A stretch of DNA of 64,000 bases from Escherichia coli (GTDB lineage: Bacteria; Pseudomonadota; Gammaproteobacteria; Enterobacterales; Enterobacteriaceae): assembly GCF_024223415.1 (NCBI RefSeq), contig NZ_CP100502.1; one strand, written 5' to 3'. Numbering within the stretch: the first letter of the stretch is position 1; every line of letters begins with the position of its first letter. The notes below the pieces were generated by a model. The model was not told the origin of the DNA. It made no database searches and saw nothing but the letters and a program-made list of their open reading frames with translations. The position numbers and the translations under genes are program-made. Of this stretch, positions 2,901-17,644 are shown piece by piece.

Positions 2901-2965
2901 GGGGTCTGACGCTCAGTGGAACGAAAACTCACGTTAAGGGATTTTGGTCATGAGATTATCAAAAA
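2901..2965. mobile_element. Tn2/Tn3 IRR-end fragment (38-bp inverted repeat at 2901-2938 plus 27 bp of adjacent Tn2 sequence)
   Basis: GGGGTCTGACGCTCAGTGGAACGAAAACTCACGTTAAG followed by GGATTTTGGTCATGAGATTATCAAAAAGG, identical to the bla-proximal end at 9298-9362. Confidence 0.85.
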
Positions 2966-3003
2966 GGGGAGCCCGCAGAATTCGGAAAAAATCGTACGCT
3001 AAG
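2966..3003. repeat. 38-bp terminal inverted repeat of a Tn21-subgroup transposon (Tn1721/Tn501-like, contains GAATTC)
   Basis: GGGGAGCCCGCAGAATTCGGAAAAAATCGTACGCTAAG overlapping the tnpA stop codon, as in Tn21-family elements. Confidence 0.7.
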
Positions 3004-5965
3004 GTTTTCCGGGCATCCGTAAGGGCCGAAACTTCCCGTCTTCCAGTCTGCGGCTCTGCCGCCAGACGTAATCGCCGGTTAGGTTGATGTGCTCCCAGCC
3101 CAGCGGCGACAGGAATTGCAGCAGCTCGCCGTCCACCGGCTTGCCGGCCTCGACCAACCCCTGGGTGGCGCGTTCCAGGTACACCGTGTTCCACAGCACG
3201 ATAGCCGCCGTCACCAGGTTGAGGCCGCTGGCCCGGTAGCGCTGCTGCTCGAAGCTCCGATCCCTGATTTCCCCAAGGCGGTTGAAGAACACCGCCCTGG
3301 CCAGCGAGTTGCGCGCCTCACCTTTGTTCAGGCCGGCATGCACGCGGCGGCGCAGTTCAACACTTTGCAGCCAGTCCAGGATGAACAGCGTGCGCTCGAT
3401 CCGGCCCAGCTCGCGCAGGGCCACGGCCAGTCCGTTCTGGCGCGGGTAGCTGCCGAGCTTGCGCAGCATCAGCGAGGCGGTGACGGTGCCCTGCTTGATC
3501 GAGCTGGCCAGGCGCAGGATGTCGTCCCAGTGGGCACGCACGTGCTTGATGTTCAGGGTGCCGCCGATCAGCGGGCGCAACGTCGGGTAGGCTTGCACGC
3601 CCTGCGGCACGTACAGCTTGGTTTCGCCGAGGTCGCGGATGCGCGGCGCGAAGCGGAAGCCTAGCAGGTGCATCAGGGCAAAGACGTGATCGGTGAAGCC
3701 GGCCGTGTCGGTGTAGTGCTCCTCGATCCGCAGGTCGGACTCGTGGTACAGCAGGCCGTCGAGCACATAGGTGGAATCGCGGACGCCGACATTCACCACG
3801 CGGGTGCTGAACGGCGCGTACTGGTCGGAGATATGGGTATAGAACAGCCGTCCCGGCTCGCTACCGTACTTCGGGTTGACGTGCCCGGTGCTCTCGCCCC
3901 GGCCACCCGCGCGGAAGCGCTGGCCATCGGAGGATGAGGTCGTGCCGTCGCCCCAGTGGGCGGCAAAGGCGTGGCGATACTGGTGGTTGACCAGCTCGGC
4001 CAAGGCCGCCGAATAGGTTTCGTCGCGGATGTGCCAGGCTTGCAGCCAGGACAGCTTGGCGTAGGTCAGGCCGGGGCTCGACTCGGCCATCTTGGTCAGC
4101 CCGAGGTTGATCGCATCACCGAGGATTGCGGACAGCAGCAACGTCCTGTCTTTGGCCTCGGCCCCGTCCTTCAAGTGGGTGAAGTGGCGGCTGAAGCCCG
4201 TCCAGTCGTCCACGTCCATCAGCAGTTCGGTGATCTTGATGCGCGGCAGTAACTGGCTGGTTTGGTCGATCAGCGCCTGCGCCCGATCCGGCACCGCCGC
4301 ATCCAGCGGGGTGATTTTCAGCCCTGACTCGGTGAGGATGGCATCGGGCAGCTCGTTGTCCTTGGCCAGGCGGGTGACGGTGGCCAACTGCTCGTCCAGC
4401 AGCTGCAAACGCTCTTCCAGGTACTGGTCGCTGTTCGGGTTGATCGCCAGGGGCAGGGCCTGCTCGCGCTTGAGTGCGGCGAACTTCTCGGCCGGCAGCA
4501 GGTAGTCGTCGAAGTCGCGGAACTGCCGCGAGCCCTTGACCCAGATGTCGCCGGAGCGCAGGGCGTTCTTCAGCTCGGACAGGGCGCAGATTTCGTAGAA
4601 TTTCCGGTCGAGGCCTTCCGGGGTGATCACCAGCGGCTTCCAGCGCGGCTTGATGAAGGCCGTGGGTGCATCGGCCGGCACCTTGCGCAGGTTGTCGGCG
4701 TTCATCTCACGCAGGGTCTGCACGGCTGCCAGCACGCCTTGCGCGGCCGGCGCGGCGCGCAGTTCCAGCACCTCCAGCAAGGCCGGCGTGTAACGGCGCA
4801 GGGTGGCGAAGTTCTCGCCGACCAGGTGCAGGTGGTCGAAGCCTTCCGGCCGGGCCAGCAGCTCGGCCTCGCTGACGCTCTCGGTGAACTCGTCCCAGGG
4901 AATCACCGCCTCGATGGCGGCATAGGGGTCGCTGCCGCTTTCCTTCGCTTCCAGCAGCGCCTGGCCGATCCTGGAGTACAGGCGCACCTTGTCGTTGATC
5001 GCCTTGCCCTGCTTCTGGAACTGCTGCTGATGCTTGTGCTTCGCGCCGCTGAACAGCTTGACCAGGATGCGGTCATGCAGATCGACCAGCTCATCGATCA
5101 CGGTCGCGGTGCTCTCCAGCACCACGGCGGCCAGGGTCGCGTAGCGGCGCTGCGGCTCGAACTTACCGAGGTCTTTGGGCGTCATCTGCCCACCCTCGCG
5201 GGCCAGCTTGAGCAGGCGGTTCTGGTGGATGTGCCGGCCCAGGCCTTCGGGCAAGTCCACCAACTGAAATGTCTTCAGCCGCTCGATGTGTTCCAGCATG
5301 TGCCGAGAGTTGGGTTTCAGCGGTGCCTGGCGCAGCCAGGTCAACCAGGTGATGCTGCTGCCGGCCTTGAGCTTCAACAGCTCGTCCAGCTTGGCCCGAT
5401 GCGAGTCCGTGAGTGGTTCGACCAGGGCGCGGTAGACCCGCCGATTGGCTCGCGCAATGGCTTCCGAGCAGGCCCGGTCAATCACGCTCAGCGCCGGCAG
5501 GATGCGTCGTTTCTGCCGTAGGCTCTCCAGGGCCTGACCGGCCAGCAGCAAGCCTTTGTCGGTCTGCTGGGCCAGCTCGGTTAGCTCGCGCACCAGGGCG
5601 CGGAAGTCGGACAGGCCGAACGGGGCCAGTTGCAGGTAGGTGCGCAGTTCCTGGGCATGCTCGCGACGGGTCACGTCGCGCTCGCCGTACTTTGCCCAGC
5701 TCGCCGGCTCGGCCTGGACTTGCTTCGCCACCCACAGGATGACCGGCTCGGGCAGCTCGCTGTCGGTTCCCAGCGCGTAACCGGGGTAGCGCAGCAGGCA
5801 GAGCTGCACGGCGAAGCCGAGGCGGTTGGCGTCGCCGCGTCGCTGGCGGATCAGCGACAGGTCGGAGTCGTTGAAGGTGTAGTAGCGGATCAGGTCATCC
5901 TGGCTTTCCGGCAGCGCAAGCAGGGTGTCCCGCTCCGTGGCCGAGAGGATCAAGCGACGCGGCAT
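2999..5965 (-). CDS. tnpA: Tn3-family transposase, Tn21 subgroup
   Basis: 988-aa ORF, recognised as Tn21/Tn1721-type TnpA by recall; immediately upstream of tnpR and res. Confidence 0.9.
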
Positions 5966-5968
5966 GTG

Positions 5969-6529
5969 TCAGTCGTCCGTGCGGAGGTACTGGTAGAGGG
6001 TTTCCCGGCTGATGTTGAACTCGCGGGCAAGCTGCGCCTTGGGCTCGCCGGCCGTCGCTCGCTGCCGCAGGGTAGCAGCCTGCTCATCGGACAGGGCTTT
6101 CTTGCGGCCCCGGTACGCGCCACGCTGCTTGGCCAAGGCGATGCCCTCACGCTGCCGCTCGCGGATCAGGGCGCGCTCGAACTCAGCGAAGGCCCCCATC
6201 ACCGACAGCATCAGGTTGGCCATCGGCGAGTCCTCGCCAGTGAACACCAGGCCCTCCTTCAGGAACTCGATGCGCACGCCGCGCTGAGTCAGCTTCTGTA
6301 CCAAGCGACGCAGGTCATCGAGGTTGCGGGCCAGCCGATCCATGCTGTGCACCACCACTGTATCGCCTTCGCGGACGAAGCTCAGCAGCGCTTCGAGCTG
6401 GGGGCGCTGGGTGTCCTTGCCCGATGCCTTGTCGGTGAACACCTTGCTCACCTGGGTTTGTTCCAGCTGGCGTTCCGGGTTCTGGTCAAAGCTGCTGACC
6501 CGGACGTAGCCGATGCGGTGCCCCTGCAC
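5969..6529 (-). CDS. tnpR: Serine resolvase of Tn21-subgroup transposon
   Basis: 186-aa ORF beginning MQGHRIGYVRVSS with catalytic serine motif and C-terminal HTH. Confidence 0.9.
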   Translation of the reverse strand: MQGHRIGYVRVSSFDQNPERQLEQTQVSKVFTDKASGKDTQRPQLEALLSFVREGDTVVVHSMDRLARNLDDLRRLVQKLTQRGVRIEFLKEGLVFTGEDSPMANLMLSVMGAFAEFERALIRERQREGIALAKQRGAYRGRKKALSDEQAATLRQRATAGEPKAQLAREFNISRETLYQYLRTDD

Positions 6530-6704
6530 GATGTCTCCTTGGTTGAAGGCGGCTTAAGTGCACTTTCTGTTCCGTTGTGCCTCAAAGCCCATTTCTGTCA
6601 GGCTGAAATCTATAACCTTCGCGGGCATGTGTCAAAAAATGGGAAAGCAGACTCTATTCTGACGAAGCGGCGCGGCCCTGCCTGACATCAAGTTAGGGTA
6701 TGCC
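6530..6704. promoter_or_regulatory. res (resolution) site region of the Tn21-like transposon
   Basis: Position between tnpR start and tnpM, as in Tn21; subsites not mapped. Confidence 0.5.
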
Positions 6705-7055
6705 TCAACCTGACGGCGGCGAATCACAAGCGTCCGGTTTGACGCTGGTTTCGGTCGCAGTGCTGGCCCGCGCCTGGAAGCGCTGATAGCACTCCAGCCC
6801 GCAGAAATGCTCCACGTACTCGGCCCCTTCCGGCGTGAAGGCGGCATCGAGCGGGATTTCCTTGCAGCACACGCAGCAACTGGTGCTCGGTTCATTGGCG
6901 TTCATGGTGGTGTTCCTCCATTGGTTGACGAAGCCGACGAAGGCCGCCGCCGGCATCGGCCTGGCGAACAGGAAACCCTGCACCGTGTCGCAACCCGCCT
7001 GCCGCAACCACGCAAGGCAGTCGGGTGTTTCCACACCCTCGGCTACCACCTCCAT
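6705..7055 (-). CDS. tnpM: TnpM (urf2M) of Tn21, start codon abutting integron IRi
   Basis: 116-aa C-terminal part of listed ORF beginning [21 protein letters not shown]; start lies directly against IRi at 7056. Confidence 0.6.
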
Positions 7056-7080
7056 TGTCGTTTTCAGAAGACGGCTGCAC
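7056..7080. repeat. IRi, 25-bp inverted repeat marking the intI1 end of a class 1 integron
   Basis: TGTCGTTTTCAGAAGACGGCTGCAC. Confidence 0.8.
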
Positions 7081-7257
7081 TGAACGTCAGAAGCCGACTG
7101 CACTATAGCAGCGGAGGGGTTGGATCCATCAGGCAACGACGGGCTGCTGCCGGCCATCAGCGGACGCAGGGAGGACTTTCCGCAACCGGCCGTTCGATGC
7201 GGCACCGATGGCCTTCGCGCAGGGGTAGTGAATCCGCCAGGATTGACTTGCGCTGCC

Positions 7258-8271
7258 CTACCTCTCACTAGTGAGGGGCGGCAGCGCATCAAGCGGTGAG
7301 CGCACTCCGGCACCGCCAACTTTCAGCACATGCGTGTAAATCATCGTCGTAGAGACGTCGGAATGGCCGAGCAGATCCTGCACGGTTCGAATGTCGTAAC
7401 CGCTGCGGAGCAAGGCCGTCGCGAACGAGTGGCGGAGGGTGTGCGGTGTGGCGGGCTTCGTGATGCCTGCTTGTTCTACGGCACGTTTGAAGGCGCGCTG
7501 AAAGGTCTGGTCATACATGTGATGGCGACGCACGACACCGCTCCGTGGATCGGTCGAATGCGTGTGCTGCGCAAAAACCCAGAACCACGGCCAGGAATGC
7601 CCGGCGCGCGGATACTTCCGCTCAAGGGCGTCGGGAAGCGCAACGCCGCTGCGGCCCTCGGCCTGGTCCTTCAGCCACCATGCCCGTGCACGCGACAGCT
7701 GCTCGCGCAGGCTGGGTGCCAAGCTCTCGGGTAACATCAAGGCCCGATCCTTGGAGCCCTTGCCCTCCCGCACGATGATCGTGCCGTGATCGAAATCCAG
7801 ATCCTTGACCCGCAGTTGCAAACCCTCACTGATCCGCATGCCCGTTCCATACAGAAGCTGGGCGAACAAACGATGCTCGCCTTCCAGAAAACCGAGGATG
7901 CGAACCACTTCATCCGGGGTCAGCACCACCGGCAAGCGCCGCGACGGCCGAGGTCTTCCGATCTCCTGAAGCCAGGGCAGATCCGTGCACAGCACCTTGC
8001 CGTAGAAGAACAGCAAGGCCGCCAATGCCTGACGATGCGTGGAGACCGAAACCTTGCGCTCGTTCGCCAGCCAGGACAGAAATGCCTCGACTTCGCTGCT
8101 GCCCAAGGTTGCCGGGTGACGCACACCGTGGAAACGGATGAAGGCACGAACCCAGTGGACATAAGCCTGTTCGGTTCGTAAGCTGTAATGCAAGTAGCGT
8201 ATGCGCTCACGCAACTGGTCCAGAACCTTGACCGAACGCAGCGGTGGTAACGGCGCAGTGGCGGTTTTCAT
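7258..8271 (-). CDS. intI1: Class 1 integron integrase
   Basis: 337-aa ORF beginning [49 protein letters not shown]. Confidence 0.95.
8156..8184 (+). promoter_or_regulatory. Integron cassette promoter Pc, weak variant (-35 TGGACA, 17-bp spacer, -10 TAAGCT); P2 inactive (14-bp spacer between TTGTTA and TACAGT)
   Basis: Hexamers read directly inside the intI1 coding region; no GGG insertion between TTGTTA and TACAGT near 8290. Confidence 0.7.
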
Positions 8272-8289
8272 GGCTTGTTATGACTGTTT

Positions 8290-8410
8290 TTTTGTACAGT
8301 CTATGCCTCGGGCATCCAAGCAGCAAGCGCGTTACGCCGTGGGTCGATGTTTGATGTTATGGAGCAGCAACGATGTTACGCAGCAGGGCAGTCGCCCTAA
8401 AACAAAGTTA
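8290..8410. other. attI1 recombination site region
   Basis: Sequence ending CCCTAAAACAAAGTTA at the cassette boundary upstream of dfrA1. Confidence 0.6.
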
Positions 8411-8427
8411 ACCTCTGAGGAAGAATT

Positions 8428-8901
8428 GTGAAACTATCACTAATGGTAGCTATATCGAAGAATGGAGTTATCGGGAATGGCCCTGATATTCCATGGAGTG
8501 CCAAAGGTGAACAGCTCCTGTTTAAAGCTATTACCTATAACCAATGGCTGTTGGTTGGACGCAAGACTTTTGAATCAATGGGAGCATTACCCAACCGAAA
8601 GTATGCGGTCGTAACACGTTCAAGTTTTACATCTGACAATGAGAACGTAGTGATCTTTCCATCAATTAAAGATGCTTTAACCAACCTAAAGAAAATAACG
8701 GATCATGTCATTGTTTCAGGTGGTGGGGAGATATACAAAAGCCTGATCGATCAAGTAGATACACTACATATATCTACAATAGACATCGAGCCGGAAGGTG
8801 ATGTTTACTTTCCTGAAATCCCCAGCAATTTTAGGCCAGTTTTTACCCAAGACTTCGCCTCTAACATAAATTATAGTTACCAAATCTGGCAAAAGGGTTA
8901 A
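8428..8901 (+). CDS. dfrA1: Trimethoprim-resistant dihydrofolate reductase DfrA1 (gene cassette)
   Basis: 157-aa ORF with GTG start, [52 protein letters not shown]. Confidence 0.9.
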
Positions 8902-8993
8902 CAAGTGGCAGCAACGGATTCGCAAACCTGTCACGCCTTTTGTACCAAAAGCCGCGCCAGGTTTGCGATCCGCTGTGCCAGGCGTTAAACATC
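8902..8993. other. attC (59-be) of the dfrA1 cassette
   Basis: Between dfrA1 stop and aadA1 start, ending GTTAAAC core. Confidence 0.5.
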
Positions 8994-9297
8994 ATGAGGG
9001 AAGCGGTGATCGCCGAAGTATCGACTCAACTATCAGAGGTAGTTGGCGTCATCGAGCGCCATCTCGAACCGACGTTGCTGGCCGTACATTTGTACGGCTC
9101 CGCAGTGGATGGCGGCCTGAAGCCACACAGTGATATTGATTTGCTGGTTACGGTGACCGTAAGGCTTGATGAAACAACGCGGCGAGCTTTGATCAACGAC
9201 CTTTTGGAAACTTCGGCTTCCCCTGGAGAGAGCGAGATTCTCCGCGCTGTAGAAGTCACCATTGTTGTGCACGACGACATCATTCCGTGGCGTTATC
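8994..9297 (+). pseudogene. aadA1: aadA1 streptomycin/spectinomycin adenylyltransferase, 3'-truncated (about 101 of 263 codons) by Tn2 IRR
   Basis: Begins MREAVIAEVSTQLSEVVGVIERHLEPTLLAVHLYGSAVDGGLKPHSDIDLL; reading frame runs straight into the Tn2 inverted repeat at 9298. Confidence 0.85.
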
Positions 9298-9335
9298 GGG
9301 GTCTGACGCTCAGTGGAACGAAAACTCACGTTAAG
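9298..9335. repeat. Tn2/Tn3 38-bp terminal inverted repeat (IRR, bla end)
   Basis: GGGGTCTGACGCTCAGTGGAACGAAAACTCACGTTAAG. Confidence 0.9.
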
Positions 9336-9444
9336 GGATTTTGGTCATGAGATTATCAAAAAGGATCTTCACCTAGATCCTTTTAAATTAAAAATGAAGT
9401 TTTAAATCAATCTAAAGTATATATGAGTAAACTTGGTCTGACAG

Positions 9445-10317
<873 letters not shown>

Positions 10318-10487
10318 TCAATATTATTGAAGCATTTACCAGGGTTATTGTCTCATGAGCGGATACATATTTGAATGTATTTAGAAAAATAAACAAATAG
10401 GGGTTCCGCGCACATTTCCCCGAAAAGTGCCACCTGACGTCTAAGAAACCATTATTATCATGACATTAACCTATAAAAATAGGCGTA

Positions 10488-11208
<721 letters not shown>

Positions 11209-14200
11209 ATGCCCGTTGACTTTCTGACCACTGAGCAGACTGAAAGCTATGGCAGATTCACCGGTGAACCGGATGAGCTTCAGCTGGCACGATATTTTCA
11301 CCTTGATGAAGCAGACAAGGAATTTATCGGAAAAAGCAGAGGTGATCACAACCGTCTGGGCATTGCCCTGCAAATTGGATGTGTCCGTTTTCTGGGCACC
11401 TTCCTCACCGATATGAATCATATTCCTTCCGGCGTCCGGCATTTTACCGCCAGACAGCTCGGGATTCGTGATATCACCGTTCTTGCAGAATACGGTCAGA
11501 GGGAAAATACCCGCCGTGAGCATGCAGCGCTGATACGTCAGCACTATCAGTATCGTGAATTTGCCTGGCCCTGGACATTTCGCCTTACCCGTCTTTTATA
11601 TACCCGGAGCTGGATAAGCAACGAACGTCCTGGCCTGCTTTTCGATCTGGCGACAGGGTGGCTTATGCAACATCGTATTATTCTCCCCGGAGCCACTACG
11701 CTGACCCGGTTGATTTCAGAGGTAAGGGAAAAGGCGACGTTGCGCCTGTGGAACAAACTGGCACTGATACCGTCAGCCGAACAGCGTTCACAGCTGGAGA
11801 TGCTGCTGGGGCCAACTGATTGCAGCCGCCTGTCTTTACTGGAATCACTGAAAAAGGGCCCTGTGACCATCAGTGGTCCGGCGTTTAATGAAGCAATTGA
11901 ACGCTGGAAAACTCTGAACGATTTTGGCCTGCATGCTGAAAACCTGAGTACACTCCCGGCTGTGCGCCTGAAAAATCTCGCACGTTATGCTGGTATGACT
12001 TCGGTGTTCAATATTGCCAGGATGTCACCGCAGAAAAGGATGGCGGTTCTGGTTGCCTTTGTCCTTGCATGGGAAACGCTGGCGCTGGATGATGCATTGG
12101 ACGTTCTGGACGCCATGCTGGCCGTTATCATCCGTGACGCCAGAAAGATTGGGCAGAAAAAACGGCTCCGCTCGCTGAAGGATCTGGATAAATCTGCATT
12201 GGCGCTCGCCAGCGCATGTTCGTACCTGCTGAAAGAAGAAACACCGGACGAATCGATTCGTGCTGAGGTGTTCAGCTACATCCCAAGGCAAAAGCTGGCT
12301 GAAATCATCACGCTTGTCCGTGAAATTGCCCGGCCCTCAGACGATAATTTTCATGAAGAAATGGTGGAGCAGTACGGGCGCGTTCGTCGTTTCCTGCCCC
12401 ATCTGCTGAATACCGTTAAATTTTCATCCGCACCTGCCGGGGTTACCACTCTGAATGCCTGTGACTACCTCAGCCGGGAGTTCAGCTCACGGCGGCAGTT
12501 TTTTGACGACGCACCAACGGAAATTATCAGTCGGTCATGGAAACGGCTGGTGATTAACAAGGAAAAACATATCACCCGCAGGGGATACACGCTCTGCTTT
12601 CTCAGTAAACTGCAGGATAGTCTGAGGCGGAGGGATGTCTACGTTACCGGCAGTAACCGGTGGGGAGATCCTCGTGCAAGATTACTACAGGGTGCTGACT
12701 GGCAGGCAAACCGGATTAAGGTTTATCGTTCTTTGGGGCACCCGACAGACCCGCAGGAAGCAATAAAATCTCTGGGTCATCAGCTTGATAGTCGTTACAG
12801 ACAGGTTGCTGCACGTCTTTGCGAAAATGAGGCTGTCGAACTCGATGTTTCTGGCCCGAAGCCCCGGTTGACAATTTCTCCCCTCGCCAGTCTTGATGAG
12901 CCGGACAGTCTGAAACGACTGAGCAAAATGATCAGTGATCTACTCCCTCCGGTGGATTTAACGGAGTTGCTGCTCGAAATTAACGCCCATACCGGATTTG
13001 CTGATGAGTTTTTCCATGCTAGTGAAGCCAGTGCCAGAGTTGATGATCTGCCCGTCAGCATCAGCGCCGTGCTGATGGCTGAAGCCTGCAATATCGGTCT
13101 GGAACCACTGATCAGATCAAATGTTCCTGCACTGACCCGACACCGGCTGAACTGGACAAAAGCGAACTATCTGCGGGCTGAAACTATCACCAGCGCTAAT
13201 GCCAGACTGGTTGATTTTCAGGCAACGCTGCCACTGGCACAGATATGGGGTGGAGGAGAAGTGGCATCTGCAGATGGAATGCGCTTTGTTACGCCAGTCA
13301 GAACAATCAATGCCGGACCGAACCGCAAATACTTTGGTAATAACAGAGGGATCACCTGGTACAACTTTGTGTCCGATCAGTATTCCGGCTTTCATGGCAT
13401 CGTTATACCGGGGACGCTGAGGGACTCTATCTTTGTGCTGGAAGGTCTTCTGGAACAGGAGACCGGGCTGAATCCAACCGAAATTATGACCGATACAGCA
13501 GGTGCCAGCGAACTTGTCTTTGGCCTTTTCTGGCTGCTGGGATACCAGTTTTCTCCACGCCTGGCTGATGCCGGTGCTTCGGTTTTCTGGCGAATGGACC
13601 ATGATGCCGACTATGGCGTGCTGAATGATATTGCCAGAGGGCAATCAGATCCCCGAAAAATAGTCCTTCAGTGGGACGAAATGATCCGGACCGCTGGCTC
13701 CCTGAAGCTGGGCAAAGTACAGGTTTCAGTGCTGGTCCGTTCATTGCTGAAAAGTGAACGTCCTTCCGGACTGACTCAGGCAATCATTGAAGTGGGGCGC
13801 ATCAACAAAACGCTGTATCTGCTTAATTATATTGATGATGAAGATTACCGCCGGCGCATTCTGACCCAGCTTAATCGGGGAGAAAGTCGCCATGCCGTTG
13901 CCAGAGCCATCTGTCACGGTCAAAAAGGTGAGATAAGAAAACGATATACCGACGGTCAGGAAGATCAACTGGGCACACTGGGGCTGGTCACTAACGCCGT
14001 CGTGTTATGGAACACTATTTATATGCAGGCAGCCCTGGATCATCTCCGGGCGCAGGGTGAAACACTGAATGATGAAGATATCGCACGCCTCTCCCCGCTT
14101 TGCCACGGACATATCAATATGCTCGGCCATTATTCCTTCACGCTGGCAGAACTGGTGACCAAAGGACATCTGAGACCATTAAAAGAGGCGTCAGAGGCAG

Positions 14201-14214
14201 AAAACGTTGCTTAA
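11209..14214 (+). CDS. tnpA: Tn2/Tn3 transposase
   Basis: About 1001 aa from MPVDFLTTEQTESYGRFTGEPDEL; stop codon lies inside the terminal repeat. Confidence 0.95.
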   Translation: MPVDFLTTEQTESYGRFTGEPDELQLARYFHLDEADKEFIGKSRGDHNRLGIALQIGCVRFLGTFLTDMNHIPSGVRHFTARQLGIRDITVLAEYGQRENTRREHAALIRQHYQYREFAWPWTFRLTRLLYTRSWISNERPGLLFDLATGWLMQHRIILPGATTLTRLISEVREKATLRLWNKLALIPSAEQRSQLEMLLGPTDCSRLSLLESLKKGPVTISGPAFNEAIERWKTLNDFGLHAENLSTLPAVRLKNLARYAGMTSVFNIARMSPQKRMAVLVAFVLAWETLALDDALDVLDAMLAVIIRDARKIGQKKRLRSLKDLDKSALALASACSYLLKEETPDESIRAEVFSYIPRQKLAEIITLVREIARPSDDNFHEEMVEQYGRVRRFLPHLLNTVKFSSAPAGVTTLNACDYLSREFSSRRQFFDDAPTEIISRSWKRLVINKEKHITRRGYTLCFLSKLQDSLRRRDVYVTGSNRWGDPRARLLQGADWQANRIKVYRSLGHPTDPQEAIKSLGHQLDSRYRQVAARLCENEAVELDVSGPKPRLTISPLASLDEPDSLKRLSKMISDLLPPVDLTELLLEINAHTGFADEFFHASEASARVDDLPVSISAVLMAEACNIGLEPLIRSNVPALTRHRLNWTKANYLRAETITSANARLVDFQATLPLAQIWGGGEVASADGMRFVTPVRTINAGPNRKYFGNNRGITWYNFVSDQYSGFHGIVIPGTLRDSIFVLEGLLEQETGLNPTEIMTDTAGASELVFGLFWLLGYQFSPRLADAGASVFWRMDHDADYGVLNDIARGQSDPRKIVLQWDEMIRTAGSLKLGKVQVSVLVRSLLKSERPSGLTQAIIEVGRINKTLYLLNYIDDEDYRRRILTQLNRGESRHAVARAICHGQKGEIRKRYTDGQEDQLGTLGLVTNAVVLWNTIYMQAALDHLRAQGETLNDEDIARLSPLCHGHINMLGHYSFTLAELVTKGHLRPLKEASEAENVA

Positions 14215-14247
14215 CGTGAGTTTTCGTTCCACTGAGCGTCAGACCCC
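14210..14247. repeat. Tn2/Tn3 38-bp terminal inverted repeat (IRL, tnpA end)
   Basis: CTTAACGTGAGTTTTCGTTCCACTGAGCGTCAGACCCC. Confidence 0.9.
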
Positions 14248-14252
14248 GCATA
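14248..14252. repeat. 5-bp target site duplication GCATA (right copy)
   Basis: Matches 2896-2900. Confidence 0.8.
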
Positions 14253-14660
14253 CAGCAGATTCTCCACCGCCAGACGGCACACGTCATTCAGCAGCCAGCG
14301 GTTGCTTTCGAACACCGGCCACAGCGTGTCCGGCAGGGTGAAGACCAGGTGCACCCAGTCGCAGTCAGGAAGACGATTCAGCTGTGTCGCTATCCACAGG
14401 TCTGTGGCCTTTTTTCCGCAGGACGGGCAGGCACGGCTGCCACATGAGTTAGTGACGTATCTGACGTGGGGGCACTCAGGTTTATCGCAGTTGTATTCCT
14501 TCACACCCAGTATCCGCGTGCCGCAGGCCAGCATTTTTGTGACAGCCTCAACCTCGATATCGCGCAGGCCGCCCGCATCCAGGAAGGATGTCCAGCACTG
14601 GTTGGCTGTGAACAGGCGTTTCAGCGGTCGGGGCTGAAAATCACCACCACTTCGGGTCAT
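14248..14660 (-). pseudogene. tnpA: IS91-family transposase, N-terminal zinc-binding segment of the gene split by the Tn2-bounded insertion
   Basis: CPHVRYVTNSCGSRACPSCGKK zinc-ribbon-like motif; frame joins 2100-2900 across the target duplication. Confidence 0.75.
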
Positions 14661-14913
14661 CCGCCTTCATCTCCGCTTCAGTTTCGTATAAATCAAAACG
14701 ACGGCAGGTATGGCAGAACGTGACGTATTCGTACGGTGAATCCGGGTACATTTTGTGGAAGGTTTCCCAGAAACAGACCGTACAGGAGGGATGACCGGCG
14801 ATAAAGTCTGTAAATACAGACTGATAAGGGTGATTATTGGCCCTGGCGACGGCTTTCAGAACCTCTTTCACCATTCTGGTGTGGACTTTCTGGTGCTCCA
14901 GGTTGTGTGACAT
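14641..14913 (-). CDS. Cys/His-rich ORF upstream of and overlapping the IS91-family tnpA start in another frame (upstream accessory ORF or frameshifted N-terminus)
   Basis: 90-aa ORF with HPSCTVCFWETFHKMY...CHTCRRF; overlaps tnpA by 20 nt in a different frame. Confidence 0.35.
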   Translation of the reverse strand: MSHNLEHQKVHTRMVKEVLKAVARANNHPYQSVFTDFIAGHPSCTVCFWETFHKMYPDSPYEYVTFCHTCRRFDLYETEAEMKADDPKWW

Positions 14914-15127
14914 GGGAACTCATTCTGGATGGTTACTCTGAAAGCTCATATTCTGCCACACCACGATTTGCAGCCGCCAGGCTGCCGTGGTTCATGGTTA
15001 GGTTTTGCGATAGTATATTTACGAGCTGATTAAGGTTTGGCATAGTGTGGTTCGTAAGAAAAATTACTATTATGCCTTGTCCTTAGTCAGCTTTTTTGTT
15101 TTTTGTCGTGTACAGAGAGAAGCCCCC

Positions 15128-15943
15128 ATGAATAAATCGCTCATCATTTTCGGCATCGTCAACATAACCTCGGACAGTTTCTCCGATGGAGGCCGGTATC
15201 TGGCGCCAGACGCAGCCATTGCGCAGGCGCGTAAGCTGATGGCCGAGGGGGCAGATGTGATCGACCTCGGTCCGGCATCCAGCAATCCCGACGCCGCGCC
15301 TGTTTCGTCCGACACAGAAATCGCGCGTATCGCGCCGGTGCTGGACGCGCTCAAGGCAGATGGCATTCCCGTCTCGCTCGACAGTTATCAACCCGCGACG
15401 CAAGCCTATGCCTTGTCGCGTGGTGTGGCCTATCTCAATGATATTCGCGGTTTTCCAGACGCTGCGTTCTATCCGCAATTGGCGAAATCATCTGCCAAAC
15501 TCGTCGTTATGCATTCGGTGCAAGACGGGCAGGCAGATCGGCGCGAGGCACCCGCTGGCGACATCATGGATCACATTGCGGCGTTCTTTGACGCGCGCAT
15601 CGCGGCGCTGACGGGTGCCGGTATCAAACGCAACCGCCTTGTCCTTGATCCCGGCATGGGGTTTTTTCTGGGGGCTGCTCCCGAAACCTCGCTCTCGGTG
15701 CTGGCGCGGTTCGATGAATTGCGGCTGCGCTTCGATTTGCCGGTGCTTCTGTCTGTTTCGCGCAAATCCTTTCTGCGCGCGCTCACAGGCCGTGGTCCGG
15801 GGGATGTCGGGGCCGCGACACTCGCTGCAGAGCTTGCCGCCGCCGCAGGTGGAGCTGACTTCATCCGCACACACGAGCCGCGCCCCTTGCGCGACGGGCT
15901 GGCGGTATTGGCGGCGCTGAAAGAAACCGCAAGAATTCGTTAA
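15128..15943 (+). CDS. sul2: Sulfonamide-resistant dihydropteroate synthase Sul2
   Basis: 271 aa from MNKSLIIFGIVNITSDSFSDGGRYLAPDAAIAQARKLMAEGADVIDLG. Confidence 0.95.
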   Translation: MNKSLIIFGIVNITSDSFSDGGRYLAPDAAIAQARKLMAEGADVIDLGPASSNPDAAPVSSDTEIARIAPVLDALKADGIPVSLDSYQPATQAYALSRGVAYLNDIRGFPDAAFYPQLAKSSAKLVVMHSVQDGQADRREAPAGDIMDHIAAFFDARIAALTGAGIKRNRLVLDPGMGFFLGAAPETSLSVLARFDELRLRFDLPVLLSVSRKSFLRALTGRGPGDVGAATLAAELAAAAGGADFIRTHEPRPLRDGLAVLAALKETARIR

Positions 15944-16029
15944 CTGCACATTCGGGATATTTCTCTATATTCGCGGTTCAGCAGGCATGTCCCCTTTGAG
16001 GGCGACCCGACGACAGGATAATCGACCTT

Positions 16030-16275
16030 ATGGTGCGCAAATATTTCGGCACAGACGGTATTCGTGGCAAAGCCAACGAAGGCGCGATGACGGCGGAAAC
16101 CGCCTTGCGCGTCGGCATGGCGGCTGGCCGTGTCTTTCGTCGCGGTGACCACCGCCATCGTGTCGTGATCGGCAAGGATACGCGCCTGTCGGGCTATATG
16201 CTTGAACCCGCGCTCACAGCCGGTTTCACCTCGATGGGCATGGACGTATTCCTTTTTGGCCCGCTGCCGACAACG
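16030..16275 (+). pseudogene. glmM: Truncated phosphoglucosamine mutase fragment, the usual sul2-associated relic
   Basis: [36 protein letters not shown]... then loss of similarity. Confidence 0.8.
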
Positions 16276-16507
16276 TATAGGAAGAATAAACGCCCTTTTC
16301 ACCCAAGTCCAACAGCTTTGGACCGCAGTTGACTCTTTCGACACCCCTGCGATGCAACCCAATCCGGCTGACGGGGAGCCAGCAACGCTGAAAATTTACC
16401 CTCCTCTTTCCCACTAGCGGCTCCTTTTCCGACAACCAGCACGGCGGATCCCTGCCGCGGCGCTGTGAACGCAGCATTTTGATTGGTATCGTTGGCCTTC
16501 AGGCTCG

Positions 16508-17644
16508 TCAGTCAAACAGACCCAGGAGCAGCTCAGCCGGTGGCGCCCGGCTTTCGGGTAACGCCCTGGTCCCGCTGGTTTCGGCTTTGTGCTTCAGGTG
16601 ATCAAGGATCTGCTTGATCACTATAGGGTCTTCAATGCAGGCGATGACTTTCATGGCGCCGCCGCAGCCGCTGCAGGTCTCGATGTCGATATTGAAAACA
16701 CGCTTGAGCCGTTGCGCCCATGTCATCGACGCTCGCCGTTGTGCTGGTGTTGCCGGTTCATCAGCCACCCTGACCTTGTTGCCCCTGCCCCGTTTTGCCG
16801 GCGTGACCAACGCCCGGTGCCGACTGTTGGGTGCGAACACCCCGTGGAAGCGGGTTAGGTTGACTCTGGGCTTCGGTACCAGGGCGGCCAGCCTTGCAAT
16901 GAAATCCAATGGTTCGAAAATGACGTGCGTGGTGCCGTCCCGGTACGGCGTCTTGAGCTGGTAGCGCACGTTGCCGCCTCGTGTTAACGACAGCCGCTTC
17001 TCGGATACCGCCGGGCGGCTGATGTACCGGCACAGCCGTTCGAGCTTCTTGCGTTCATCGGCCCTGGCCGCCACGCCGGCGTGCAGGCTGGACCCGGCTA
17101 CCTTGCCAATCCCGTCACCGAACGGATCACCACTGGTCGGCAGAGTTTGCAAAGTGAACACCTTTCGCCCCGCCTGTGAACCGACAGCGATACGGTAAGT
17201 GATCGAGTGCCCCAGCAGGGGTGTCATCGGGTCGTCATCCACCGCATCCGAGGCCAGATAGCTGTTTTCGACATCCCGTTCCAGCAGGCCTTGCCGTTCC
17301 AGATAGCGACCCACCCGGTGGGCGATGGTGTGCGTCAGCTGGGTGAGCTCTGGGGTGGTCGGCGCCTTGACCCAGCGGAAACGCGCTGAGCCGTGGGATT
17401 GCTCGACATACACACCGTCGAGAAACAGCATGTGGAAGTGAACATTCAGATTGAGCGCCGATCCAAAACGCTGGATCAGGGTGACCGCGCCCGTCTTGGC
17501 CACTTGGTGGGTATGGCCCGCTTTCTTGACCAGGTGCGTGGCAATGACGCGGTAAACGATGCCCAGCACCCACCCCATGATCTCGGGCCGGCTGGCAAAC
17601 AGGAAACGCAGCTGAAACGGGAAGCTCAACACCCACTGACGCAT
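16508..17644 (-). CDS. IS91-family ISCR2-like transposase, probably lacking the N-terminal zinc-binding region
   Basis: 378-aa ORF with HFH (HUH) and YxxxY motifs and ISCR-type C-terminus IDIETCSGCGGAMKVIACIEDPIVIKQILDHL; adjacent to sul2 and truncated glmM. Confidence 0.7.
   Translation of the reverse strand: MRQWVLSFPFQLRFLFASRPEIMGWVLGIVYRVIATHLVKKAGHTHQVAKTGAVTLIQRFGSALNLNVHFHMLFLDGVYVEQSHGSARFRWVKAPTTPELTQLTHTIAHRVGRYLERQGLLERDVENSYLASDAVDDDPMTPLLGHSITYRIAVGSQAGRKVFTLQTLPTSGDPFGDGIGKVAGSSLHAGVAARADERKKLERLCRYISRPAVSEKRLSLTRGGNVRYQLKTPYRDGTTHVIFEPLDFIARLAALVPKPRVNLTRFHGVFAPNSRHRALVTPAKRGRGNKVRVADEPATPAQRRASMTWAQRLKRVFNIDIETCSGCGGAMKVIACIEDPIVIKQILDHLKHKAETSGTRALPESRAPPAELLLGLFD

Follow-up and report, generated by a model that had tools for sequence, protein, structure and literature searches.

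The closest described system is the class 1 integron that combines the promoter PcW with the integrase variant IntI1 R32_H39 (Jove 2010, PLoS Genet 6:e1000793; reference sequence U49101). The PcW, PcH1, PcS, and TGN-10 nomenclature and the promoter strengths used here are taken from that study, in which lacZ fusions carrying the same sequence as that found here gave PcW an activity ∼25-fold weaker than that of PcS, and in which TGN-10 changed promoter strength 15-fold. Of the 321 integrons surveyed there, 16.5% had plain PcW without P2. IntI1 R32_H39 was the most active form in attC × attC excision (51- to 336-fold), and in attI × attC reactions the IntI1 variants differed only ∼3- to 8-fold (Jove 2010). 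The roles of ORF-11 and of the LexA box, the control of intI1 by LexA, and transcription interference have been reviewed (PMC8876359). A dfrA1-aadA1 cassette array of this kind is known as In369 (INTEGRALL; pH2291-144/pH2332-166, PMC4285173), and the described counterparts of the surrounding elements are the transposons Tn2 and Tn21/Tn1721.

The stretch of DNA analyzed here (the window) comprises 64,000 nt of Escherichia coli sequence from an IncI1 plasmid. It very probably carries a canonical class 1 integron 5'-CS in the commonest weak configuration for a dfrA1-aadA1 array. The promoter region is identical to that of the PcW and R32_H39 integron noted above, with which it shares the hexamers, the 17-nt spacer, the C upstream of the -10 element, the 14-nt P2 spacer, and R32/H39. 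The LexA box and the integrase promoter PintI1 are likewise as described for PcW class 1 integrons. The 5'-CS and its cassettes contain the following features.

7056-7080: exact match to TGTCGTTTTCAGAAGACGGCTGCAC, which we take to be IRi, the inner inverted repeat and left boundary of the class 1 integron 5'-CS
7258-8271, minus strand: intI1, intact, 337 aa, variant R32_H39 (open reading frame plus NCBIfam integron integrase equivalog)
8156-8184, plus strand: Pc, plain PcW, with -35 TGGACA (8156-8161), a 17-nt spacer, and -10 TAAGCT (8179-8184)
8275-8300, plus strand: P2 hexamers TTGTTA/TACAGT with a 14-nt spacer, the inactive form without GGG insertion
8284-8299: predicted LexA box, CTGTACAAAAAAACAG as read on the minus strand, 16 nt, CTGT-N8-ACAG, intact
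8298-8326, minus strand: PintI1, with -35 TTGCTG (8326-8321), a 17-nt spacer, and -10 TAGACT (8303-8298)
8356-8413, plus strand: attI1, ending in the core G/TTAACC, with the crossover between 8407 and 8408
8373-8411, plus strand: ORF-11 leader peptide, MLRSRAVALKQS, with Shine-Dalgarno (SD) sequence GGAG at 8361
8408-8984, plus strand: dfrA1 gene cassette, 577 nt, with its coding sequence at 8428-8901 and attC at 8897-8990
8985-9297, plus strand: aadA1 cassette remnant without attC, ATG at 8994, 304 nt, 101 of 263 codons

When the whole 64-kb window was scanned, the pattern TGGACA-N17-TAAGCT gave a single match, at 8156-8184 on the plus strand (0.01 expected by chance). A first-pass annotation of this DNA had called this promoter PcW with a 17-nt spacer. 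Re-reading for the hexamers TTGACA/TAAACT found TGGACA/TAAGCT instead, and the call is exact to the coordinate. The same annotation had considered P2 inactive on account of its 14-nt spacer. This also holds, as TTGTTA-N14-TACAGT occurs once in the window, at 8275-8300, with the spacer TGACTGTTTTTTTG and no GGG insertion. Pc lies within intI1 codons 30-39 and P2 lies between intI1 and attI1, which is their placement in the class 1 integron 5'-CS. A reading of the sequence alone thus sufficed to type Pc correctly.

Typing of Pc also requires that the TGN-10 base be checked, a position that the first-pass annotation had left unchecked. Nucleotides 8176-8178, directly 5' of the Pc -10 element, are TCG, with C two bases upstream of the hexamer, and there is no TGN-10. 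The same base is part of IntI1 codon 32, such that a change there bears 15-fold on promoter strength and >300-fold on excision. By the published measurements, plain PcW lacking both TGN-10 and P2 is predicted to be the weakest common configuration. A generic sigma-70 consensus scan did not report PcW, whose TAAGCT matches 3/6 positions of TATAAT. This absence is no argument against Pc and reflects its weakness only.

The IntI1 protein scores 799.5 bits against the NCBIfam integron integrase equivalog (cut-off 435), and in an identical relative the product carries the accession WP_000845048.1. R32 is encoded by CGA at 8178-8176 and H39 by CAC at 8157-8155. The LexA box overlaps the PintI1 -10 element and, as there is no GGG insertion, is intact; the assignment of PintI1 follows the review cited above (PMC8876359). 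IntI1 would be made only after SOS induction, and the weak Pc would leave PintI1 undisturbed.

Next to intI1 lies attI1, where CCCTAAAACAAAG directly followed by TTAACC provides the GTTRRRY core at the first cassette boundary. This attI1 is 100% identical to that in the 5'-CS of complete arrays. The stop codon TAA of ORF-11 comes from the dfrA1 cassette and lies 16 nt before the dfrA1 start, a GTG preceded by its own SD sequence, GAGGAAG. The dfrA1 protein scores 305.5 bits against a DfrA1-like model (cut-off 250), and AMRFinder gives 100% identity to the DfrA1 reference for a plasmid that matches the window at 100% over 7000-9700. The bottom strand of attC(dfrA1) folds at -36.3 kcal/mol (z = -8.2) into an imperfect hairpin with bulged bases. 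A full-length intI1, an adjacent attI1, and a cassette with a folding attC are all present, and the element is a class 1 integron.

The PcW-dfrA1 integron is a known and well-described form, and surveys report the same pairing. Complete dfrA1-aadA1 arrays with 100% identity to positions 7000-9297 are present in Salmonella, Shigella, Enterobacter, Klebsiella, and E. coli. Within E. coli, Pc-dfrA1-aadA1 occurs in ∼113 of 5,426 complete genomes. An even-step sample contained 26 full-length dfrA1-aadA1 rows, of which 22 (∼85%) were 100.0% identical to the window. The remaining four arrays carry G8182A (PcH1; two arrays), C8177G (PcW-TGN-10), or the GGG insertion that gives active P2; the C8177G form is that of locus L005, and the 17-nt GGG form of P2 is that of locus L002. 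A pattern for all Pc variants followed by dfrA1 as first cassette, which matches the window, had no matches in genome_contigs or metagenome_contigs. These zeros are probably due to the use of one genome per species and to assemblies that break at repeats. For an IncI1 plasmid lineage associated with livestock and humans, the promoter call sets the dfrA1 expression class to be expected; beyond annotation, the finding matters little.

Functional statements about this plasmid are transferred from published work on identical sequences. The low-level dfrA1 expression proposed in the first-pass annotation agrees with the published PcW measurements (Jove 2010) and is likewise predicted here. Transcription from Pc would run rightward across attI1, dfrA1, and the aadA1 stub at a rate ∼1/25 that of PcS. 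It probably ends just inside the adjoining Tn2-type transposon, at the following hairpin.

9359-9384: hairpin AAAAGGATCT...AGATCCTTTT, from RNA folding, with T-runs on both strands

This hairpin is the probable terminator of bla. Translation of dfrA1 would begin at its own SD sequence and GTG, and weak constitutive expression is expected to be enough for clinical trimethoprim resistance. In one survey, all 12 of 12 dfrA1-aadA1 integrons had PcW, and 11/12 strains were co-trimoxazole resistant. A comparison of trimethoprim MICs with those of strong-Pc integrons is likely to be insensitive because 11 of these 12 PcW strains were resistant.

A different result was obtained with E. coli from pigs, where dfrA1 integrons with PcW or PcH1 plus the 14-bp P2 yielded no dfrA1 transcript by RT-PCR (Mazurek 2015). 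Given these data, dfrA1 expression could be lower than assumed. If dfrA1 were effectively silent from plain PcW, as might also be argued from the poor match of this promoter in the generic sigma-70 scan, then any trimethoprim phenotype would have to come from elsewhere. We consider this very improbable. The strains of that study carried several dfrA genes and the assay was end-point RT-PCR, whereas the resistance frequency in the separate survey points to functional expression. Moreover, dfrA1 occupies the first cassette position, behind ORF-11, and is preceded by an SD sequence of its own. No other dfr was found among the open reading frames of the resistance region or in positions 1-35,000 and 64,001-112,380 of a near-identical plasmid.

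The first-pass annotation had also placed a truncation of aadA1 at 9297, and the junction is as described: The gene is cut after nt 304 and abuts a perfect 38-nt Tn2/Tn3 inverted repeat (IR) at 9298-9335. The remnant matches AadA1 profile positions 1-96 of 258. No aadA1 3' end, sul1, qacEdelta1, or IS26 was found in the window, where exact matches to the 5' ends of sul1 and qacEdelta1 were sought, and the annotation of the near-identical plasmid lists none of them in positions 1-35,000 or 64,001-112,380. The 3'-CS that characterizes clinical sul1-type class 1 integrons (qacEdelta1 plus sul1) is therefore missing. This loss leaves class 1 membership untouched because the class is defined by intI1. 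The sequence from the interior of intI1 to aadA1 nt 304 has 100% nucleotide identity to In369. It differs in that aadA1 ends at this point and its attC and the 3'-CS are replaced by a Tn2-type blaTEM-1 transposon.

From the truncation, the array had been described as frozen. This is accurate for the aadA1 stub, which has lost its attC and would be immobile, but it appears overstated for the integron, which on the evidence of its parts is hobbled rather than frozen. Excision by attC × attC recombination should be impossible because only one attC remains, and the array would consist of one mobile cassette and one dead stub. A similar distinction applies to the high integrase activity that had been proposed. 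The enzyme is the R32_H39 variant, but the LexA box would hold intI1 off. With a single attC, the excision advantage of this variant is moot, as its favored reaction lacks a substrate. At least two attC sites are needed for the "weak promoter, active integrase" trade-off to apply, and it is absent here.

Could the integron nevertheless be a functionally fixed dfrA1 expression unit? The single attC and the predicted repression of intI1 for most of the time by the LexA box are consistent with this view, as is the stability of the lineage. Ten PLSDB plasmids share the aadA1-IRR junction at 100% identity; they originate from the UK, Denmark, and other sources and were recovered from chickens, pigs, humans, and food. 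A truncated aadA1 also seems to be carried by at least two more E. coli plasmids, and no cassette gain or loss was seen in plasmids with this junction. However, stability over a dozen recent plasmids is expected either way on such a timescale. In addition, intI1, attI1, and attC(dfrA1) are undamaged and match their counterparts in active integrons exactly, these three components suffice for integration at attI1, and excision of a first cassette via attI × attC is documented in the literature, if less efficient. A fixed unit is thus unlikely. Capture of new cassettes by attI1 × attC recombination and loss of dfrA1 can, to judge from the intact sites, still occur.

The DNA on both sides of the integron is composed of parts of transposons, as listed below.

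2896-2900: GCATA, left-hand repeat of the 5-bp target site duplicated by the original Tn2 insertion
2901-2967, plus strand: Tn2 right-end stub (IRR plus 27-29 nt), a direct repeat of 9298-9364
2966-3003, minus strand: Tn1721/TnAs1-type IR, the end of the Tn21-family transposon that carries the integron (element span 2966-6529)
2999-5965, minus strand: tnpA of the Tn21-family transposon
5969-6529, minus strand: tnpR of the Tn21-family transposon
9298-14247: Tn2-type (Tn3-family) transposon, with IRR at 9298-9335 and IRL at 14210-14247
9445-10305, minus strand: blaTEM-1, within the Tn2-type transposon
10488-11045, minus strand: tnpR, within the Tn2-type transposon
11209-14214, plus strand: tnpA, within the Tn2-type transposon
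14248-14252: GCATA, right-hand repeat of the duplicated 5-bp target site

The Tn2-type element shares with Tn2 its perfect 38-nt IRs (100% complementary), its tnpA-tnpR-bla layout, and a 5-bp target duplication, and its transposase gives a Tn3-family profile match of 1157.6 bits. The silent sites of bla are TEM-1b-like in comparison with pBR322, and the element is provisionally assigned to Tn2 rather than to Tn1 or Tn3. The IR at 2966-3003 we take to be of Tn1721 type rather than Tn21 type. As in Tn21, the integron lies beside tnpR and an EAL-domain remnant. Unlike Tn2 and Tn21/Tn1721, the elements here are nested and partly deleted, leaving a 65- to 67-nt Tn2 stub and no mer end. Literature searches found no description of the aadA1-Tn2 junction on IncI1 plasmids.

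The clean transposon end at the 9297/9298 junction would fit a simple insertion of Tn2 into aadA1, with the rest of the gene and the 3'-CS lying beyond the transposon. However, GCATA and an IS91-family transposase gene, rather than TTATC and aadA1, lie beyond the IRL ending at 14247. The flanking 5-mers therefore differ (TTATC on the aadA1 side, GCATA on the other), and the window lacks the aadA1 3' end, qacEdelta1, and sul1. The sequence already refutes a simple insertion, to which we assign virtually no likelihood.

A history of nested transposons followed by deletion is favored because a 65- to 67-nt IRR stub is present at 2901 together with the GCATA duplication. The window holds three Tn2 IR copies, and the direct repeat 2901-2967/9298-9364 is 65-67 nt long. 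GCATA flanks the outer IR pair (2901, 14247), not the inner pair, and many plasmids carry the reconstructed empty site uninterrupted and at 100% identity, within a gene for an IS91-family transposase. From these junctions we infer two Tn2 copies and their subsequent resolution. Tn2 would first have entered the IS91-family transposase gene of the plasmid, duplicating GCATA. An integron-carrying Tn1721/Tn21-type transposon would then have entered the right end of this Tn2 at a point 65-67 nt inside it, and a second, intact Tn2 copy would have come to lie in aadA1. Recombination between the two direct Tn2 copies, most simply res × res by TnpR, would finally have removed the 3' end of aadA1 along with its attC, the 3'-CS (qacEdelta1-sul1), and the remainder of the Tn21-type element.

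Tn3-family transposons confer transposition immunity, which counts against direct entry of a second Tn2 into the same plasmid. For this reason, it is more likely that the integron-bearing transposon already carried aadA1::Tn2 on arrival. PLSDB yielded neither an intermediate with Tn2 in aadA1 and both junctions preserved nor the reciprocal junction (Tn2 IRL, TTATC, and the aadA1 3' end). Its sole two-piece match, NZ_OP242238.1, has ∼100 nt between the pieces and represents a different insertion. A one-step origin by intramolecular replicative transposition of Tn2 was also considered and was rejected because the uninterrupted sequence 9298-9364 cannot derive from a Tn2 split at nt 65-67.

The 11.35-kb segment 2901-14247 is bounded by inverted Tn2 IRs and GCATA and holds tnpA, tnpR, and res of Tn2 plus intI1, Pc, attI1, and dfrA1. 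It may be a transposition-competent Tn2 derivative that moves a working integron platform as a unit, although we regard this as quite unlikely. If it is true, then movement would require neither Tn402 tni genes nor Tn21 ends, and the 65- to 67-nt direct repeats (2901-2967, 9298-9364) would permit the integron to be lost precisely, with plain Tn2 restored.

The gene for sulfonamide resistance here is sul2, at 15128-15940, in place of sul1. Loss of sul1 through the proposed deletion would thus be compensated by the neighboring sul2, and the pair of dfrA1 and a sul gene for co-trimoxazole resistance is kept.

Pattern searches of the window returned single matches to TGGACA-N17-TAAGCT (8156–8184, + strand; 0.01 expected by chance) and to TTGTTA-N14-TACAGT (8275–8300). 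Both lie at the normal class 1 integron positions: the cassette promoter Pc is within the 5′ end of intI1, and P2 falls in the gap that separates the intI1 start codon from attI1. The coordinates and hexamers given by the first-pass annotation are exact, as re-reading yields TGGACA/TAAGCT, and the 14-nt spacer verifies its call of an inactive P2. It had left unchecked the triplet preceding the Pc −10, which reads T8176-C8177-G8178. Substituting G for C two positions before the −10 gives PcW-TGN-10, which is 15-fold stronger than PcW and as common as the plain form (Jove et al. 2010). Given this triplet, the promoter is plain PcW, and every sequence feature that defines plain PcW with an inactive P2 was found on testing. 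This pairing is the weakest among five common configurations and accounts for 16.5% of 321 integrons (Jove et al. 2010). The surrounding features are as follows.

7258–8271, − strand: intI1, 337 aa
8284–8299: perfect LexA box, CTGTACAAAAAAACAG, overlapping the PintI1 −10
8326–8298, − strand: PintI1, TTGCTG-17-TAGACT
8373–8411: ORF-11 leader, encoded by attI1, MLRSRAVALKQS
8407/8408: crossover point of attI1, which ends G/TTAACC
8408–8984: dfrA1 cassette
8994–9297: aadA1 remnant, 101 of 263 codons, matching AadA1 profile positions 1–96 of 258

This promoter configuration is already known and ordinary. At least 80% of window 8100–9297 is carried by 113 of 5,426 complete E. coli genomes. In a sample spaced evenly through the ranking of matching genomes, 22 of the 26 rows with a full-length dfrA1-aadA1 array matched the window at 100.0% identity, and the four others were fetched. 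Two carry G8182A (PcH1), one carries C8177G (PcW-TGN-10), and one has a GGG insertion after 8293 that gives an active P2. The promoter change is the sole difference in two of the four (L004 and L005), and the other two (L002 and L003) have one or more further changes within dfrA1. Since each variant is altered at a promoter-determining position, one dfrA1-aadA1 array is in circulation with cassette promoters of several strengths. PcW was reported in 12 of 12 dfrA1-aadA1 integrons from Portuguese coastal-water E. coli, and dfrA1 integrons of pig E. coli have PcW or PcH1, with a 14-bp P2 in every case (Mazurek 2015). Together, the sample and these surveys establish PcW with inactive P2 as the norm for the array, as already described. 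Complete dfrA1-aadA1 integrons on Salmonella, Shigella, Enterobacter, Klebsiella and E. coli plasmids are 100% identical to window 7000–9297. The window itself matches the opening 64 kb of plasmids of the IncI1 type, E. fergusonii pRHB41-C23_3 among them, with six mismatches across the first 35 kb and none in 7000–9700.

The low-level dfrA1 expression predicted from the promoter agrees with published lacZ fusions of an identical promoter, which imply low transcription; in such fusions PcS is 25-fold stronger than PcW (Jove et al. 2010). There is a small probability that dfrA1 is instead near-silent under plain PcW, as one report could not detect dfrA1 transcripts with PcW or PcH1 (Mazurek 2015), but 11 of the 12 PcW strains in the coastal-water survey were co-trimoxazole resistant. 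Because resistance is already present with PcW, a trimethoprim MIC comparison is unlikely to discriminate. The cassette supplies the ORF-11 stop codon 16 nt upstream of the dfrA1 GTG (8428), and dfrA1 has its own SD, GAGGAAG. Transcription from Pc would traverse dfrA1 and what is left of aadA1, enter Tn2 in the direction antisense to bla, and probably end at a hairpin at 9359–9384 (AAAAGGATCT...AGATCCTTTT). This structure, found by RNA folding just inside the Tn2 right inverted repeat (IRR), carries T-runs on each strand. It is the terminator of bla and would also end Pc read-through running antisense toward blaTEM-1. As a separate observation, the G at window position 8650, inside dfrA1, gives Val (NENVVIFPS). 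In L002 and L003 this base is T, and their annotated protein accession is WP_000777554.1 instead of WP_000777555.1; the name DfrA1 is applied to the two alleles alike.

Codon 39 of intI1 (8155–8157, CAC, His) overlaps the Pc −35, and codon 32 (8176–8178, CGA, Arg) is the TGN position, which identify the integrase as IntI1 R32_H39; its defining features were all found. The first-pass claim of high integrase activity holds in that R32_H39 is the most active variant and PintI1 is free of interference from a weak Pc (Jove et al. 2010; review PMC8876359). It needs qualifying as to synthesis, which is predicted to be LexA-repressed, and as to substrate. The superiority of R32_H39, 51- to 336-fold, was measured for attC × attC excision; for attI × attC integration the spread among variants is just about 3- to 8-fold (Jove et al. 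2010). With a single attC left in the array, the excision advantage is without substrate. The P2-activating GGG insertion would disrupt the LexA box and abolish LexA control (review PMC8876359); as the window has no such insertion, intI1 expression should stay SOS-dependent and LexA-repressed.

The aadA1 truncation is confirmed, with the cut after 9297 adjoining a perfect 38-nt Tn2/Tn3 inverted repeat (9298–9335). That this froze the array is partly right, but the decisive change is loss of attC(aadA1), not of aadA1 coding sequence. As expected, the bottom strand of attC(dfrA1) forms a bulged hairpin when folded (−36.3 kcal/mol, z = −8.2). The claim is also partly wrong: since none of intI1, attI1 and attC(dfrA1) is damaged, the array could still take up new cassettes, and it could still lose dfrA1 via attI × attC, the less efficient route according to the cited literature. 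All class 1 integron features were found except the 3′-CS, missing through deletion. The aadA1 3′ end, sul1, qacEΔ1 and IS26 were absent from the window by sequence search, and none is annotated in 1–35,000 or 64,001–112,380 of the near-identical plasmid; a sulfonamide resistance gene is supplied instead by sul2 (15128–15940).

The Tn2 inverted repeat occurs three times, at 2901, 9298 and 14210–14247, the last two bracketing blaTEM-1, tnpR and tnpA in inverted orientation. The copy at 2901 is a right-end stub of 65–67 nt (2901–2967), a direct repeat of 9298–9364. It adjoins a 38-nt repeat (2966–3003), which we take to be Tn1721-type, belonging to the tnpA-tnpR module that leads to the integron. 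GCATA lies immediately outside both the stub (2896–2900) and the left inverted repeat of Tn2, IRL (14248–14252), and TTATC lies left of 9298. Between the outer repeats, at 2901 and 14210–14247, is an 11.35-kb nested structure that interrupts an IS91-family transposase gene (2100–2900 and 14253 onwards); 2600–2900 joined to 14253–14552 gives a sequence that runs unbroken, at 100% identity, through that gene in many other plasmids.

The simplest explanation for these repeats, flanks and the reconstructed empty site is a nested insertion followed by deletion, in four steps. Tn2 would have entered the IS91-family gene, duplicating GCATA; an integron-carrying Tn1721/Tn21-type transposon would then have inserted 65–67 nt from its right end; a second, intact Tn2 would have come to lie in aadA1; and the two directly repeated copies of Tn2 would have recombined, most simply by TnpR at res, with loss of everything between. 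As the predicted intermediate (Tn2 in aadA1) was not found in PLSDB, this history is one that we infer. Such deletions are routine in resistance regions, and the aadA1-IRR junction, which is rare (10 of 72,556 PLSDB plasmids), defines a small plasmid lineage. It is doubtful that the 11.35-kb segment transposes as a unit carrying the integron platform; no second insertion site for it was found.

An IncK2/Z plasmid from Denmark (NZ_CP141237.1, 1–16701), compared with window 2965–16700, is 99.98% identical over the shared region, which covers the Tn1721-type repeat, integron, Tn2, IS91 remnant and sul2. Only the part from that repeat rightwards is common to IncK2/Z relatives, which have tetR(A)-tet(A)-EamA on the left and no Tn2 stub. 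The resistance block has therefore either moved from one plasmid type of the I complex to another or recombined across them. An EAL-domain remnant ORF (6705–7055) separates tnpR from the inner repeat IRi, an arrangement like that of the Tn21 tnpM/urf2 region; with the Tn1721-type repeat on the tnpA side, this suggests a Tn1721/Tn21 hybrid backbone. Downstream of sul2 come a fragment of the glmM 5′ end and a truncated transposase:

16508–17644, − strand: ISCR clade Ia transposase, profile positions 128–508 of 509

A sul2-ISCR2 remnant of this kind is typical; here it occupies window 15128–17644, flanked by the IS91-family gene and by yacA of the IncI1 backbone. The blaTEM-1 region (9445–10480) has a weak P3-type promoter (TTCAAA...GACAAT), T at gene positions 18, 228 and 396, and G in the leader (AACCCTGGTAAATGC). 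Judged against pBR322, this pattern is presumably TEM-1b/Tn2-like rather than Tn3-like.
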